A DNA stretch of 64,000 bases from an uncultured Acidobacteriota bacterium (GCA_963804995.1 CAWDSK010000003.1:992001-1056000), one strand, 5' to 3'; shown: positions 46,792-56,491, counted from the stretch's first letter. Numbers and translations: made by a program. Notes: a model not told the origin generated them from the sequence alone.

Positions 46792-47145
46792 TTACTCTTC
46801 TGAATTCGCCTCGCCTGTATGATGGCTGTCCCCCTCATGGTTTCCGCCGTTTTTGGATTCGCCCTCTTTGTGCATGTAGCGGATGCAGGATTTCATTATG
46901 AGGAGGTTCGGTTCGTTCTGGCGGTGGACCTTAATGCAGTTCCGGTCGTACCACTCGATCACGCCATGGATTATTTCACCCTGGTTTAACACAACCACCA
47001 TGGGTGTGCGCGACTGCATTTGCTTCACGTAATAGAAATTTTCAGCGTTCGTCTGGTCCGGCGGCGCGGGCTTCTTGCGCTGCATCCGCGAGCCAAGCTG
47101 GTCCTGTACATCAGACAGGGAAGGACGAATGAGTCGTCGATTCAT
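46792..47145 (-). CDS. Hfq/Sm-like RNA chaperone paralogue
   Basis: 'TPMVVVLNQGEIIHGVIEWYDRNCIKV...LLIMKSCIRYM' fits the Sm1/Sm2 pattern. Confidence 0.75.
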   Translation of the reverse strand: MNRRLIRPSLSDVQDQLGSRMQRKKPAPPDQTNAENFYYVKQMQSRTPMVVVLNQGEIIHGVIEWYDRNCIKVHRQNEPNLLIMKSCIRYMHKEGESKNGGNHEGDSHHTGEANSEE

Positions 47146-47546: not shown

Positions 47547-48629
47547 CTAGCCGGGCTTGCGGCCCGACATCATCTCGATGCCCAGAGTCTCGAAGCCCAG
47601 TTGGGGGTTAACATTGCGAATCTGCAAGCGATAGGCCTGATCGAGCCCGGCCTTTAGTCGCTCAATTCCCTCCAGGCCGAGCTTCGGGGCCCAGGCCTGA
47701 AGGCGCGGCTGCACGTCAATATTCACAACCACCTCGGGGGAGCTCGCCAACAAGACATGCAGTAGATCCGCCAGCACGGAATAACCAATTTCGAGCGTGC
47801 CGGCAAAGTCATCGCGATTTTCGGTGAGCCCACGGGCGGAGTCGAACAGCAGGCGCCAGTCCGGTGACGCCCCGGGAGCGGCGCGGCCCGCAGTGGCTTC
47901 CAGGAAATCCAGCCAGGGCTTGCGGCGACGCTCGTATTCAGAGGGGTCAAAGGCACGGGCGCGCGCCACGCTGCCCGCCGCCACGCGTGCGGCGAGAGCC
48001 AGTTGGGGCTTCGTGAAATCTTTCTCGCGGGCGAGAAGTTCCTGAATGAGCGGCTCCTCTACGGGCTGGAAAGGGAGGCGCTGACAACGCGAACGGATAG
48101 TCGAGCGCAACTCATTGGCATTCGGGCAAACCAGGATAAAGCGGGTCGTCTCCGGCGGTTCCTCCAGCACCTTGAGCAAGAGGTCAACGGCCTGCCAATG
48201 AATGGTCTGCGCGTCGTCGAGAATGAAGAGGCGGAGTGGGAACTCAAAGGGCCGCGTGTAAGCTATGGCGCGAAGTTGGCGGATCTGTTCCGTGAGAATG
48301 AATTTGGTGAACGGCTCAAGGATTTGGAAATCGAAGTAGACCAGGCCCTCCACGCGGCGGGCGGCCTCCTTGATTTCACGGCGCCGTGCCGAATCTTCCC
48401 GCGCGGCAGCGAACATCTGCTCAGCCTTGCGGCAGCGTGCGCAATGGCCGCAGAAATCTCGAGGGCCGGTCTCGCAAACCAGCGCCTTGGCCAGCATCAG
48501 GGCCAGGGTCTTCTTGCCCACGCCGTCCGGTCCGGTAAAAAGCAGGGCGCCCGGCACACGGCCAGTCACCAGCATTTCACGAACTGCGGCCACCGCCTGC
48601 GGATTACCGAGAAAAGAGTCGAAGCCCAT
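47547..48629 (-). CDS. holB: DNA polymerase III subunit delta'
   Basis: ALLFTGPDGVGK, C..FCGHCARC, LLKVLEEPP, TIRSRCQ. Confidence 0.9.
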   Translation of the reverse strand: MGFDSFLGNPQAVAAVREMLVTGRVPGALLFTGPDGVGKKTLALMLAKALVCETGPRDFCGHCARCRKAEQMFAAAREDSARRREIKEAARRVEGLVYFDFQILEPFTKFILTEQIRQLRAIAYTRPFEFPLRLFILDDAQTIHWQAVDLLLKVLEEPPETTRFILVCPNANELRSTIRSRCQRLPFQPVEEPLIQELLAREKDFTKPQLALAARVAAGSVARARAFDPSEYERRRKPWLDFLEATAGRAAPGASPDWRLLFDSARGLTENRDDFAGTLEIGYSVLADLLHVLLASSPEVVVNIDVQPRLQAWAPKLGLEGIERLKAGLDQAYRLQIRNVNPQLGFETLGIEMMSGRKPG

Positions 48630-48832
48630 GTATTCCTCAGAGAAAGCCTTGGGTTTGTGTATCCGTCCTGTGAACTCACCTTTCCCCGGGTTTGTCACTT
48701 ACGTGCGATGGCGAGCTGGACACACATCTATGCGCCAGGGTTATTGCATAACAGTCAACCTTGTGGTGAAGCTGTTCGAGGGGGCCCAAACTCTAACGCA
48801 AAGACAACTGGACATTCTTTTGCATATTTTGT

Positions 48833-49423
48833 CTAGGCGCATTTCGAAATAGCCAACACGTCCCCAAGCTCCAGTCCCACCCTAGCACGGAGTTGGCGAT
48901 TCAGCTGGCGTTTCTGTAAGGGGATTGCTGACAATACGTAGAGGTACTCGTTCAGGTATTCATCAGTAGCCAAGGCGACGAACAATCGCTTAAGGTCGAG
49001 AGGCCTGACCACTATGCAATCACTGGGTAAGGTCCTGGTTGACGCTGCAAATTGGGGAGAGAATATAACCGAGAGTCTAGCGGGAGGCTTGTTGAGATGA
49101 CGTTGGGACAGTTGTTTTAGGCGGTGATCAGAACTCCCGTAGTACCCAAGGGCTCTGCCCCTCACATTCGAACCTGAGCGCAGCCGGAGGCTCAGATCGA
49201 TAATGTCGTAGTCTCTTCGGTGAGCCACCCGTAGAAAACTAAAACCGCTTGCACGCAAGTAGTCTTTGAGCGCAGGCCGGCACTGAGCCAGAGTTCCGGC
49301 TTTCCATTGATTTTCGAAGAACGCCTCGGCTGCTTGTATGTAGCGACGGTAAGTGTACCGATAATTAAGATACCTTTCAGTAAAATGGCTTACGAGATTA
49401 CGCAGAGGTGTTGAAGTTTGCAT
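48833..49423 (-). CDS. Hypothetical basic protein (196 aa), lower GC
   Basis: AGGAG RBS; starts 4 bp after the upstream stop; no family recognised. Confidence 0.7.
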   Translation of the reverse strand: MQTSTPLRNLVSHFTERYLNYRYTYRRYIQAAEAFFENQWKAGTLAQCRPALKDYLRASGFSFLRVAHRRDYDIIDLSLRLRSGSNVRGRALGYYGSSDHRLKQLSQRHLNKPPARLSVIFSPQFAASTRTLPSDCIVVRPLDLKRLFVALATDEYLNEYLYVLSAIPLQKRQLNRQLRARVGLELGDVLAISKCA

Positions 49424-49427
49424 GCCG

Positions 49428-50198
49428 TTAACTCCTTTTCCTGCGCAAGAGAAGGACAATTCCCAATGCCGCCAAGGCGGCTCCACCTACGAGTGTCCGG
49501 GAGGGCAGTGGCAGGATTGCAAACAAACTCAAGAAAGCTGCAGCTACGACAGCACCGACCGCGGCCAGGAAAATCCATTCTTGAATCCTCTGGCTCACCG
49601 CAGTGAGAGCCTCCAGCCGCTCAAACCTGTAGTTGACTGTGCTTAAAGTAGAGGTCATCTCGTCCAGCCGTTGGCTGATCTCTATGATGCTATAAGAAAT
49701 CCGTTTCGGCACCGCCGGGGTTTGCTGGGGTTTGCTGATTTCCTCTCCGCCTTTGTACTTACAACTGGCCTGATTGTTGAGATGTTCGAACTCGCAGGTC
49801 GCAAGCGGGTCTTCATATACTAATTCGATCGGCGAATCTGTAATGTTTGCCAACGGGAAAAAAAGTAAACCGTTGTAGCCGGGGTCAATGAGCCCGCCAG
49901 AGTAAAATAACCCACGAAGTTGATGAAAGGAGCGCAACGATAGCCGACCTGCCATATTCTGCGGTAGCTTAATCTTCTCCCGACTCGATACAATGCAGGA
50001 CTGGCCGGGCTGCAAACTAAACGAACGTTGGATAATTAGTGAGTAACCACGAAGTCCATCTGGATGTGCAACGATTACGGTTTCTCCGATCCTGAAGTCA
50101 TAAGATGCGCCCTTTAGGCGGTTAGGTTCGAAAGGGGATATAAGACCTTGTTCCTCGGCGGCGGCTTCAATTTCTGTATCAACAAGTGTCTTACCCAT
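49428..50198 (-). CDS. dCTP deaminase/dUTPase-fold protein with C-terminal coiled region and two TM helices
   Basis: ASYDFRIG, E.IKLP..MAGRLSLRS, IDPGYNG; hydrophobic 'WIFLAAVGAVVAAAFLSLFAIL' and 'LVGGAALAALGIVLLL' followed by RRKR. Confidence 0.8.
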   Translation of the reverse strand: MGKTLVDTEIEAAAEEQGLISPFEPNRLKGASYDFRIGETVIVAHPDGLRGYSLIIQRSFSLQPGQSCIVSSREKIKLPQNMAGRLSLRSFHQLRGLFYSGGLIDPGYNGLLFFPLANITDSPIELVYEDPLATCEFEHLNNQASCKYKGGEEISKPQQTPAVPKRISYSIIEISQRLDEMTSTLSTVNYRFERLEALTAVSQRIQEWIFLAAVGAVVAAAFLSLFAILPLPSRTLVGGAALAALGIVLLLRRKRS

Positions 50199-50205
50199 GT
50201 CGCCA

Positions 50206-50921
50206 TCACCTCTTGTCAGTTTCGACGCTTTCGATCAAGTCCAGTTGCTCCGAAGAATCATATCCAGACTCTGAGAAAGCTCGCTTCACAATAGTGAAAA
50301 TGTTCTTGCGGACAACCTCAATCGGCTCATTGCCATCGACTGTGAAAATCTTATGTCCTTCCGATTGCAGCCGCTTGATGCAAGTTTGGTAGTTGTCGCG
50401 AACAAGGGTCAGCCTTCCTATATCCTCGAATAGTTCCACGTGCCAACGCTGTGCATCCATCCTTTTCTTTGCTATCTCAGACGGCACGTCCAAGAAGATA
50501 GTGACATCAGGGGGCAGACACTTGAGGTTTATTTGACGGACCCACTCAAACTCTAAGTCGACGCTCTGATATGCGAAGCTGGAAAGCCAGTACCGATCAG
50601 CAACTACGGTTATCCCCTTCTCGAGTTTTGGAAGAATATCTGTTGCAAGATGGTCCATTCTGTCCGCAGCAAACATTAGTGCCATGGCGGCTGAGTCGAG
50701 ACTAGAATAGCCACCTTGCGACGCAGTTGTGGAGTTTGTGGGAGAAAAGAGGCGCCTAGACAAAGCGAGGCGGATGATGGCGCCAACAGGGCCAGCGGTT
50801 GGCTCCTTGGTTAAGTACGAGAGTCTGTTTTGTTTGTCAAGCCACTTCTTGAGTAACTCAGCCTGAGTCGTGATGCCCGACCCGTCTGTTCCCTGAGCAC
50901 TATGAACCTACCCCGAGCCAT
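50206..50921 (-). CDS. tmk: Thymidylate kinase, foreign-looking (1-bp deletion near 50894)
   Basis: MARGRFIVL[E]GTDGSGITTQ...LTKEPT..; ALMFAADR.DH, VVADRYWLSSFAYQ, PDVTIFLDV. Confidence 0.85.
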
Positions 50922-51042
50922 CTGTCACCCCTTCGGAAAATTGGAATTCAACATCGTGAAGCGCGCATATCTTACCACACGCCGCAGTCGAGCTCTCGTT
51001 TTCACAAATACAAGTATGCCACACTGTACCTCGCATATATCC

Positions 51043-51192
51043 TTACTCTTTGGCATTTCGCACATTTCTCACAACGTCCCGACTCCAATATACATAGCCC
51101 CCTCGAAGCGAGCGCTGAAACGGAAATCGAAGCTGCGTGCTCTTGCCGGTGCCGTCAATCCCTTCGAAAGTGATGAAGAGGCCGGGTTGCAT
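51043..51192 (-). pseudogene. tmk: 5' stub of the native thymidylate kinase
   Basis: MQPGLFITFEGIDGTGKSTQLR followed by unrelated sequence and a stop at codon 50. Confidence 0.85.
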
Positions 51193-51477: not shown

Positions 51478-52179
51478 ATGGAGAATGTAATCAGCATTAC
51501 AGAAAACGTGGCGCGCGTCGAAGAGCGCATCACCGCCGCCTGCCGGCGCAGCGGCCGCAAACGCGAGGAGGTGCGTCTGGTGGCAGTTTCGAAAACGCAT
51601 CCGCCAGAGCAAATTCGCGCGGCCTTTGATGCGGGCCTGCGTGACTTCGGTGAAAACCGGGTGCAGGAAGCAAAGGCCAAGCGGCCGGCGCTGGCAGACT
51701 TGGCCATTACCTGGCACCTGGTGGGGCATCTCCAAACCAACAAGGCGGGGGCCGCGCGCGAAATGTTCCATTGGGTACATTCTGTGGATTCTTGGCGCCT
51801 GGCTGAGAAGCTCGCGCAGCTCGCCTCGCCAGACGCTGCGCCCTTACCGGTGCTAATGGAAGTGAATTTGGGTGAGGAGGCATCCAAAGCGGGCATGCGC
51901 GTGGCCGATGTGCTGGATAGCGCTGCGCAGATTGGTCAGCTTCGAACGCTCGACCTGCGTGGCCTGATGGTGATTCCTCCGTTTCTCGAGGATCCCGAAC
52001 AGGTCCGGCCGTACTTCCGGCAATTACGCAGACTGGCGCGTGAGATTGAGGCGCACAACTTGCCGAACGTCTCGATGCGCGAACTTTCCATGGGCATGAG
52101 CCACGATTTCGAAGTGGCCATCGAAGAAGGCGCCACGATCGTACGCGTGGGAACGGCAATCTTTGGAGCGCGTGGTTAG
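51478..52179 (+). CDS. yggS: PLP homeostasis protein YggS
   Basis: LVAVSKT, FGENRVQE, WHLVGHLQTNK, HSVDS, LSMGMSHDF..AIEEGAT.VRVGTAIFG. Confidence 0.96.
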   Translation: MENVISITENVARVEERITAACRRSGRKREEVRLVAVSKTHPPEQIRAAFDAGLRDFGENRVQEAKAKRPALADLAITWHLVGHLQTNKAGAAREMFHWVHSVDSWRLAEKLAQLASPDAAPLPVLMEVNLGEEASKAGMRVADVLDSAAQIGQLRTLDLRGLMVIPPFLEDPEQVRPYFRQLRRLAREIEAHNLPNVSMRELSMGMSHDFEVAIEEGATIVRVGTAIFGARG

Positions 52180-53949: not shown

Positions 53950-56491
53950 TTGAGAATTCGACCCCTTGCACTTTTTCTTGGCGTGATGATTCTGGGGATG
54001 GCGCGCGCTGCATCCGGGCAGAGCAGCGGCAACCTGGCCGATTGGACGATCTACGTAACGAACGACACGTGTCCTGATTACACGTGGGGATTCTCTGAGG
54101 ACGTGACGCGGAGAAGCTTTGCCGATCTGGTGCGGGCGCATCTGGATGAAATGCAGCGCACCGACGGCGAGCGCGTCGAGAACCGTGACCACTACAACAT
54201 GGCGGTGACGCAGGAGGCACTGTGCTTCCTCAAGGTACCCGGAGCGGCGCGATGAACTGGTTCGGCGCATTCACGAGGGCAGGGTGTTCGTCAGCCCCTT
54301 CCTCAATAACTCACTCTGGGGCTTCCAGAGTGTCGAAGGAATGATCCGCACGCTATATCCTGCCCGCCGCCTGGAACGAGGCTGGGGCATGCCTATGACG
54401 GTGGCCCATCACATTGAACTGCCCTCCTTGCCCTGGGGTGTCGCATCAATTCTCGCCGGCTGCGGAGTGCGCTGGCTGCTGGTGCCGTTCTACGATTTTG
54501 ACTCGACGTTTGCAAGTCTGGACAATCCACCGCTCTTTGCCTACGAAGGGCCGGACGGGGCACGACTGCGGGTCATCATGGACCCGTGGGCCTCAGGAAA
54601 ATGGAGCTATGCGCAAGGCGCCGCGGTGCTCGGCAATCCCGAACTGATTTCCCGACAGTGGCTGCCCCATTATGCAGGTTTGGGTGACAAGTACCCTTTA
54701 AAGGCGGTACTGGCCAGCGGCACGCACAGCGATTACTCGCCCCGGAGCGCGTCGCAGGCGCCGGGATTCGCCGACGCAATCATCCATTACAACGCGAGAC
54801 CGGGGCCGCATCCCCGACTGGTGAACGCCATTCTCCCCCAATTCACGGAACAGGTTGACCAGGAGGAAGCACACCGGCCCTTCTTGAGAGTCCTGCGCGG
54901 TTCGTTTGGAAATTCGTGGGAGTCGTGGCCGGTCAGCCTGGCGAAGTACGCAGCCGCCATGCGTGAGGGCGAGCGACGTTTCCTGGCGGCGGAAGCGTTG
55001 ATGGCCCTGGCAGGGTGGCGAAACCCTTCGGCGGTAGACTCCAGTCGCCCCGACCGCGAACGCGCTGAATGGGATTTGGCAATGCTCGGCGATCACGCTT
55101 GGAACGGCGCGGACGAAACCAACAAGCAAGTGAATGCGGCTCTGCGGCGGAAGTGGTCGGAAGAGTTGTTGTCAATTGACCAGCGGCTGGCCCGCCAGGC
55201 ATGGGCCGGAATTGGGCTCAAGGAGCACTCGGATTCATTAATCGTATTCAACAGTCTGAGTTTCCCGCGCACGGGCCTGGTTTGCGTGGAGCCGGCGCCG
55301 GGCGTGACCGGCGTAGCGACCGAAACGTCGGGGCTGAATGCCCAGTGGGTCGATGAAAACGGCCGGCACGTGTTGTGCTTTGTATCGCCCAGGGTGGAGG
55401 GGTTTGGATTCAAGCGCCTGCTCATGACGCGAAGTTCGACCACACCCGCGAGGGCGGAGAACCGCCTTCGCGCGACTGACCGCGAATTGGAAAGCCCTTA
55501 CTACAGTCTAACGGTTGACCCGGCAACGGGCGGAATCTCGAATCTGGTGTGGAAGGCCACCGGCAGGCAGCTCCTCAAGAGTAGCCAGGGACGGACGGTT
55601 GGGCAAACCCTCTTTTTTGACGGGCAAGACCATCCGCTCGAAGATGTGAAGTCGGAGGTTGTCTCTACCGGGCCGGTGCTGGCGCGGTTGAAGATTGTGG
55701 GGCGAACCGCCGGCATTGATCTTACGACCTTTGTGACGGTCTATGCTGATCTCGATCAGGTTGATTTTGATATGCGTGTAAAGAAGCCCCTCTCGTCACA
55801 AGAACAGCGGCTGACGCACATTTTTCCCGTAATACCATCGGGGGCAATGCTGCGAATTGAAACCACTGGGGCGGTGGTTCGGCCGCAAATGCAACCCGCG
55901 GGGGATATGTTGCCAGGCTCGGACTTGCGGCGCTTGGTGGTGCAGGGGTTCGTCGATGCTTCTCTCGCGGGGGGTGAGGGAGTTACCCTGGCCCCCCTCG
56001 ATTCCTTCCTCCTGCGCGCCGACCTGGATGCTGTGACTTTTGAAGCCCTGGGCAACGATCAGGACTACAAAGAGGTGATCAGGGACCAGGCTGGAGAGAC
56101 GGAGTTCCGCTTTCGTTACAGCCTGCGAGCCCACCGGGGGGGTTACCAAAGCGCGGGCGCATTTGCCTGGAGCCGGAGTGCGGCTACTTCCTTGTTAACA
56201 GCTTGGGGTGAGTTATCGCGAAACTCCTTGCCCCGGCTGGTGGTAGATCAAGCCCGTGCCATCGCCACTGCTTTCAAGCCTGCGGACGAGGGGTCAGCAC
56301 GCGGGGTAATCGTTCGCCTGTGGGAGACGGGAGGAACTTTCGGACCGCTTCGGCTGGGCACAGGGGGGTTCCGGCGATCGTATCGCTGTGACCTGCTGGA
56401 ACGTGACCTGGGGGAATTGAGAATGGACGAGGGGGAAGTGGCGGTGCCGCTCGAAGCCAACGGTTTTGGATCAGTTCGGCTGGTTCGGTAA
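53950..56491 (+). CDS. Secreted glycoside hydrolase family 38-like protein (frameshift near 54232)
   Basis: Signal peptide; 'DTCPDYTW', 'DHAWNG', 'VFNSLSFPR', 'FKPADE...IVRLWET...CDLLER'. Confidence 0.65.

Follow-up and report, generated by a model that had tools for sequence, protein, structure and literature searches.

Our results establish that the native dTMP kinase gene (tmk) of an uncultured Acidobacteriota bacterium has been displaced in situ by a foreign cassette, and that this displacement is recurrent. The cassette pairs a Tmk-family kinase lacking the Walker A lysine with a protein in which a Dcd/dUTPase-fold domain precedes two transmembrane (TM) helices (Dcd-2TM). With confidence a little above even, we favour the reading that the pair is a nucleotide-gated membrane defence module, with the kinase also serving as the housekeeping Tmk. 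We rank behind it, in this order, a metabolic module, strict addiction, and decay or mis-assembly.

The native tmk is displaced in situ by a foreign cassette

The window analysed here (64,000 nucleotides) is C3:992001-1056000 of genome G000, a 92% complete assembly of 7.55 Mb in 9 contigs. The initial annotation had described, on the minus strand, a native tmk stub, a foreign tmk, a Dcd/dUTPase-fold-2TM gene, a 196-aa ORF and holB, with only 7 and 4 nt between the three middle genes. Both the order and the tight spacing were borne out by the coordinates (Table 1).

Table 1. Features of the cassette and its flanks (positions in the window)
Feature	Position	Strand	Remarks
yggS (PLP-binding protein)	51478..52179	+	Conserved left flank, divergent from tmk; PF01168, E 1e-22
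Native tmk stub	51127..51192	-	First 22 codons, P-loop intact (translation)
Spacer upstream of cassette	50922..51126		Foreign, non-coding, 48% GC
Foreign dTMP kinase gene	50206..50921	-	About 238 aa; TIGR00041 match, tree, homologs
QLDLI motif, kinase C-terminus	50233..50247	-	Resembles beta-clamp-binding motif
Dcd/dUTPase-fold-2TM gene	49428..50198	-	PF22769, E 3e-16
Third gene (196-aa ORF)	48833..49423	-	Probably PD-(D/E)xK-like fold
Spacer before holB	48630..48832		48.5% GC, ~200 nt; right junction inside
holB (DNA polymerase III delta-prime)	47547..48629	-	Conserved right flank; PF13177, E 1e-35

Both flanks are conserved. The yggS flank is common to relatives and to two of the other cassette loci described below (L034 and L037), and G000 holB is 70-84% identical to most of its genus orthologs. 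A tmk with the P-loop lysine lies directly upstream of holB in 25 of 29 holB loci of relatives, one of these (L021) being frameshifted, and no tmk was seen upstream of holB in the other 4. In G000, the blastn match to the tmk of the closest relative (G015) breaks off precisely where the stub ends. The reading frame of the stub continues through unrelated foreign sequence and stops at 51043. By tblastn, no remainder of the native tmk was found in the 92% complete assembly. On the right side, DNA likeness to relatives restarts only at the start of holB. The gap between tmk and holB measures 384-630 nt in 4 of 15 genus members (L008, L016, L017 and L020), and an Hfq-related protein (PF21979) is encoded downstream of holB at 46792-47145 of the window.

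The composition of the insert is foreign. As the initial annotation had noticed, the cassette is AT-rich: its GC content is 50.4% versus 58.5 ± 2.2 for the genome, and only 0.23% of 2.3-kb segments of G000 reach a value as low. The GC3 of the insert is 0.53-0.56, compared with 0.68-0.73 for yggS and holB. A kinase tree of 36 rows, hand-picked from about 150, placed the branch of the foreign kinase clade apart from the native Tmks (SH-aLRT 100%), and a tree constraining the foreign kinase with the native Tmks of the genus was rejected (p-AU 2e-38). The stub, the missing remainder, the synteny and the discordant tree together confirm the earlier claim that the native tmk was destroyed and a foreign one took its place.

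In xenologous gene displacement in situ, a foreign homolog takes over the very position of an essential gene. Our case is alike in that a foreign homolog sits at the native locus, the native gene is gone and the phylogeny is discordant. It differs from usual displacement in that the same cassette is found repeatedly, in at least three Acidobacteriota lineages, that a passenger membrane protein is carried along, and that a native stub is still present in G000. The search for att sites or terminal repeats at the cassette returned chance-level repeats only, and promoter and terminator scans around it gave no signal above shuffle level. No integrase was seen around the G000 cassette, and the defence-island context that had been proposed for checking was not found either, the neighbouring genes looking like housekeeping genes.

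As assembled, the foreign kinase gene lacks one base after codon 9 (near 50895, by DNA alignment). This lesion, in an assembly that is 92% complete, could mean that the frameshift is real and the cassette dead, or that the junction is chimeric. However, 7 of 51 control genes (orthologs of relatives' ORFs) are also frameshift-split in G000, about 1 per 2,500 codons, which gives a prior chance of error of ~9% in the 238-codon kinase gene. Compared with the L037 kinase gene, there are 100 synonymous and 59 residue-changing codon differences, and no other lesion. Since control genes are split too and the kinase is otherwise undamaged, the frameshift is probably an assembly error. Decay or mis-assembly is further opposed by two independent assemblies in which the pair occupies this locus as well, and by the other PF02223 genes of G000, which look like PPK3 (see below); we regard it as very improbable. 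Elsewhere in the window, the ORFs at 53950-54255 and 54284-56491 look like a single gene that was split; single-base frameshifts are frequent in this assembly.

Recurrence of the cassette at the tmk site

Homologs of Dcd-2TM at 38% identity or more, with DNA context, were found at four other loci (L034, L035, L036 and L037), giving five loci with G000. These four are three genome contigs and 1 of 8 metagenome loci; the remaining 7 metagenome loci are distant. The co-occurrence of three genes implied at the outset held for two of them. The kinase and Dcd-2TM genes stand together in 5/5 loci, a member of the kinase clade lying directly upstream of Dcd-2TM in all four others, but the third gene is missing from L034, L035 and L037 and has only a weak counterpart in L036.

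The pair lies between yggS and holB in L034 (Acidobacteriaceae) and L037, and no native tmk or stub was seen at these two loci. In L035 (Anaerolinea), it lies between an R3H-AAA gene and an intact native tmk, and the insertion position equals the tmk position in L060 and L086. The L036 cassette is cut by the contig end, and the tmk of its genome is located elsewhere. The host tmk site is thus occupied by four of the five cassettes, of which three replace tmk, and cassettes at this site were found in at least two Acidobacteriota orders. The native tmk is intact alongside the cassette in two of the five genomes (G429 and G430). The stretch 4250-8750 of L035 also contains, in addition to Dcd-2TM and the native tmk, a degenerate extra Tmk, a Tmk fusion ending in QLQLDF and a deaminase-domain fusion gene.

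Between L034 and G000, holB is 37% identical and the kinases are 69% identical. The holB fragment of L037 is 73% identical to that of G000, and closer relatives, at 83-84%, retain the native tmk. No member of the kinase clade was found in 28 genus genomes, 400 class genomes or 150 other genomes of the order of L034. Taken together, these comparisons point to separate arrivals of the cassettes at one locus. Our guess is that recombination aided by homology of tmk or the flanks targets them there. No cassette was found on viral contigs (11 distant kinases, 4 neighbourhoods inspected) or among 14 distant viral dcd/dut matches (1 inspected).

The third gene, which we treat as optional in the cassette, has one close homolog (66% identity) and belongs to no Pfam, NCBIfam or PADLOC family. 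Among 1.84 billion representatives, a profile search recovered nothing but the query itself. Its structure model (pLDDT 68) has an alpha-beta-beta-beta-alpha-beta core of restriction-endonuclease-like topology. VIA matched it to AF1548, XisH-like, AspBHI, NucS-like, MspJI and LlaBIII structures with Z of 6.0-6.8 and rmsd of 3.0-3.8 Å over 87-127 residues, values within the range of common arrangements. An Atlas search also gave PD-(D/E)xK leads, and Foldseek with the model gave no match under E 0.001. The D...ExK motif is missing, the third strand being RALGYY in both the gene and its close homolog. The model suggests that the protein probably adopts a restriction-endonuclease-like fold of the PD-(D/E)xK type that lacks the ExK motif, with the caveat that the alignment behind the fold includes the weak L036 counterpart. 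This counterpart, the gene after Dcd-2TM in L036, aligns with hhalign at E 0.046, and 7 to 123 of 1000 shuffles reach its score.

The lysine-less kinase and its C-terminal tail

Read beyond the frameshift, the foreign kinase scores 133.5 bits with TIGR00041 (cut-off 83.25), and its intact homolog P0011 scores 157.5 bits; it is 69-75% identical to intact homologs. Its P-loop is GSGITT, with Ile in place of the Walker A Lys. This Lys occurs in none of the 118 clade homologs whose P-loop could be read (the other 2 of 120 lacked a readable one), and the TKEP, DR and DRY substrate-binding motifs are invariant across 25 aligned kinase sequences. A Lys-less kinase is the sole PF02223 match in 5/5 Chloroflexota genomes and the only strong one in genome G428, and for this reason the clade very likely works as a dTMP kinase. 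This would make it, as a side result, a Tmk clade seemingly working without the Walker A lysine; the available part of PMC9599734 contains no mention of a lysine-less Tmk.

Another tmk was to be looked for in the genome. G000 does carry two more PF02223 genes, a tandem pair on contig C6, but both look like PPK3 rather than dTMP kinase. PPK3, a recently described polyphosphate kinase, is defined in PMC12995831 by a tandem Tmk-like pair beside CHAD that is related to STK_15430. The first C6 gene is closest to the PPK3 subunit STK_15430 (197 bits to 2plr/5h70 versus 56 for the next match). Given this likeness and the adjacent CHAD, the pair was rejected as a backup Tmk, which leaves the foreign kinase as the only dTMP-kinase candidate found in G000. 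The pair occupies G000:C6:1533580-1536127 (L002, L003), and most genus members have a similar one. An ORF resembling, by eye, a group II intron reverse transcriptase adjoins it at G000:C6:1536682-1538118.

The PADLOC profile PDC-M51B partially matched the foreign kinase (E 1.5e-12, 99 residues). This profile is Tmk-like, but no partner gene matches, and the hit most likely reflects generic Tmk similarity. On the viral contig L092 (4171-7765), one operon holds a calcineurin-like phosphoesterase, a lysine-less Tmk, MazG and thymidylate synthase, so that the Lys-less kinase type also occurs inside another nucleotide-centred cluster.

The beta-clamp-binding consensus is QL[SD]LF, and the kinase tail carries a motif close to it (Table 1). 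Among kinase-family tails of at least 10 residues, Q[LMI]x[LFI] was present in 66 of 90, versus a shuffle mean of 2.9 and maximum of 9. After 60% dereplication it was present in 11 of 24 (shuffle mean 0.9, maximum 5), and it was found in 0/16 native Tmk tails. All five cassette kinases have the motif, compared with none of 8 stand-alone Chloroflexota Lys-less kinases. When the tail was folded with G000 DnaN, the score was 0.38, versus 0.00 for the best control. The mark for a complex was reached by 116 of 157 solved pairs and 2 of 215 mismatched pairs; at a score of 0.60 or under, it was reached by only 18 of the 157 solved pairs and by both mismatches. Contacts agreed by at least 81% between the tail-DnaN runs, and partner pLDDT was at least 54. 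Since clamp-peptide complexes have already been solved, the pass may reflect likeness to known structures. The modelling thus weakly supports binding of the tail to the clamp, which would give a second side result, a nucleotide kinase possibly tethered to the replisome.

The Dcd-fold membrane protein and the proposed function

In the Dcd-2TM protein, the Dcd/dUTPase-fold domain (aa 1 to about 150) is followed by a long helical stalk (about aa 171-210) and hydrophobic segments at aa 211-229 and 233-251; the structure model is of low confidence (pLDDT 52). The catalytic residues of dCTP deaminases include the Glu of ITLEL and the Arg of SSLGR. Both are missing here, LFFPL and SFHQL being aligned to these motifs (2qlp, 2qxx, 4xjc). 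RS and DPGY are retained. The protein scores 65.4 bits with the dCTP deaminase model TIGR02274, below the cut-off of 92.8. A separate above-cut-off dcd is encoded elsewhere in 4/4 cassette genomes. The ITLEL Glu is absent in all 13 Dcd-TM proteins examined, and DPG[YF] is kept in 12 of the 12 motifs read.

The protein retains the motif-3 Asp of dUTPases (invariant in 6/6), and the nearest solved structures to the domain, the Dcd/dUTPase-type proteins 8y1w and 9ln0, likewise lack the Glu, so that a membrane-anchored dUTPase is possible. Together with a clamp-tethered Tmk, it would form a metabolic module that supplies dTTP and clears dUTP, and the displacement would be an ordinary one with no defence involved. 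The use of Lys-less kinases as the sole Tmk in other genomes, the clamp-like tail and the housekeeping neighbourhood beside holB agree with this explanation. However, the second nucleotide-binding motif reads RSFH instead of RSSL, the score with the trimeric dUTPase model TIGR00576 is far under its cut-off (23.8 versus 102.55 bits), and the stalk and TM helices have no evident metabolic use. The patchy spread and the defence-like neighbours of Dcd-TM relatives, described below, also argue against it, and we consider the metabolic module unlikely.

A defence role is plausible on indirect grounds. The 2TM effectors of CBASS and Pycsar have a ligand-binding domain fused to two TM helices. The cassette protein is similar in combining a putative ligand domain with two TM helices, but the cassette has no cyclase, and the receptor fold is Dcd/dUTPase rather than SAVED or beta-barrel. 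In dCTP deaminase defence (AvcID), a Zn-dependent CMP/dCMP deaminase fold depletes dCTP. Here too a P-loop kinase-like unit is paired with a deaminase-named domain; unlike AvcID, this domain has the trimeric dUTPase fold without the deaminase residues and is membrane-anchored.

The accessible part of a preprint on type II Metis describes the HAD phosphatase MisB and the 3-TM effector MisC (bioRxiv 10.1101/2025.11.05.686725). Like the cassette, type II Metis is a two-gene operon of a nucleotide enzyme and a membrane protein, and gating by a deoxynucleotide released during infection is proposed in that part of the text. The cassette differs in having a Tmk-family kinase and a Dcd-fold-stalk-2TM protein, which suggests a pyrimidine ligand. 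No homology to MisB or MisC was found in the cassette, whose Pfam matches are Tmk and DCD with no HAD, and which has 2 TM. In Clover, according to the available portion of PMC12265719, the CloA dGTPase is activated by dTTP, and a dTTP rise is a real phage cue. Unlike the cassette, Clover as described there combines an HD-domain dGTPase and a nucleotidyltransferase, without Tmk, Dcd fold or TM effector. The part of the DefensePredictor paper at hand (PMC13092281) mentions an unvalidated predicted dUTPase-containing system. The pair of kinase and Dcd-2TM was not recognisable in the open-access literature searched. PADLOC-DB 2.0 has no family matching Dcd-2TM or the third gene, in line with the initial annotation, which did not recognise the combination as a named system.

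In the defence reading, the cassette would be a rare, horizontally moving two-gene module with optional extras that lands at the host tmk locus. If the kinase it brings functions as a Tmk, loss of the native gene becomes tolerable, and from then on the host depends on the cassette's kinase gene. As expected from the fold, the Dcd domain would trimerise and act as a pyrimidine-nucleotide receptor. Phage infection would cause a surge of a pyrimidine deoxynucleotide or an abnormal one (dTTP, dUTP or a modified base), which the kinase would pass on or clear. Binding of the ligand to the Dcd domain would turn the membrane helices toxic and abort the infection, with the kinase probably tethered to the beta clamp by its tail. 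A methyl-cytosine ligand was weakened as a candidate, as no C5 methyltransferase was found in G000. If phage defence is true, the protein would represent a new receptor fold for nucleotide-sensing immunity. An accessory module would also persist without a toxin-antitoxin pair by occupying the locus of an essential enzyme.

The initial annotation had further proposed that the cassette makes itself indispensable. The kinase is probably indispensable, but this lock would hold the kinase gene alone, and two of the five genomes keep the native tmk. True addiction would mean that Dcd-2TM is toxic unless its own kinase removes the ligand; the pair would maintain itself, and replacement of the native tmk would be a second lock. 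The linkage of the two genes in 5/5 loci and the restriction of the tail motif to the cassette kinases in the comparison with the stand-alone Chloroflexota kinases are consistent with it, and MisB of Metis, in the part of the preprint cited above, is a precedent for ligand removal. On the other hand, related Dcd-TM genes often stand alone, and clearance of the substrate could equally be done by a native Tmk. The evidence does not support strict addiction, which we think quite unlikely.

Distant Dcd-TM proteins are scattered: they were found in 3 of 400 phylum genomes and, with a looser cut-off, in 11 of 132 family genomes, which include the unpublished G1080 and some matches without TM helices. 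The Glu is missing from these distant Dcd-TM proteins as well. The distant two-TM forms L117, L143 and L145 pair with adenylosuccinate-synthetase-like and kinase genes. On two plasmids, Dcd-2TM occurs with a flavin oxidoreductase, in one case directly after Gabija and in the other beside DUF4062. No PADLOC match was found for 10 distant Dcd-TM relatives and partners. One-TM forms often stand alone (L046, L048, L136, L139, L141 and L142), so that a kinase partner is not generally required. Nucleotide-signal immunity shows such a pattern, in which the receptor-membrane protein stays constant and its partner enzymes are exchanged; type II Metis (bioRxiv 10.1101/2025.11.05.686725), CBASS and Pycsar are alike in this. 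We tentatively propose, at somewhat less than even confidence, that Glu-less Dcd-TM proteins are undescribed nucleotide-gated membrane immune effectors with interchangeable enzymes (Tmk; adenylosuccinate-synthetase-like plus kinase; MazG-like plus flavin oxidoreductase). The present branch would then have become entrenched through a clamp-tethered Lys-less Tmk that displaced the host gene at its own locus. If true, this would name a wider Dcd-TM family that is currently annotated as dCTP deaminase or hypothetical.

The operon of L117 (6023-10441, genome G267), L143 and L145 consists of genes for an RNase_H_2 exonuclease-like protein, a P-loop kinase, an adenylosuccinate-synthetase-like protein and Dcd-2TM. 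We regard this operon type as a candidate for defence by nucleotide signalling; the two of its genes that were scanned had no PADLOC match. In L117 the operon adjoins a duplicated gyrB 3' fragment. The plasmid loci are L104 (5004-7094, Rhizobium) and L102 (4980-8164, Priestia), and L104 adds a small gene, MazG-like as judged by eye but without a Pfam match.
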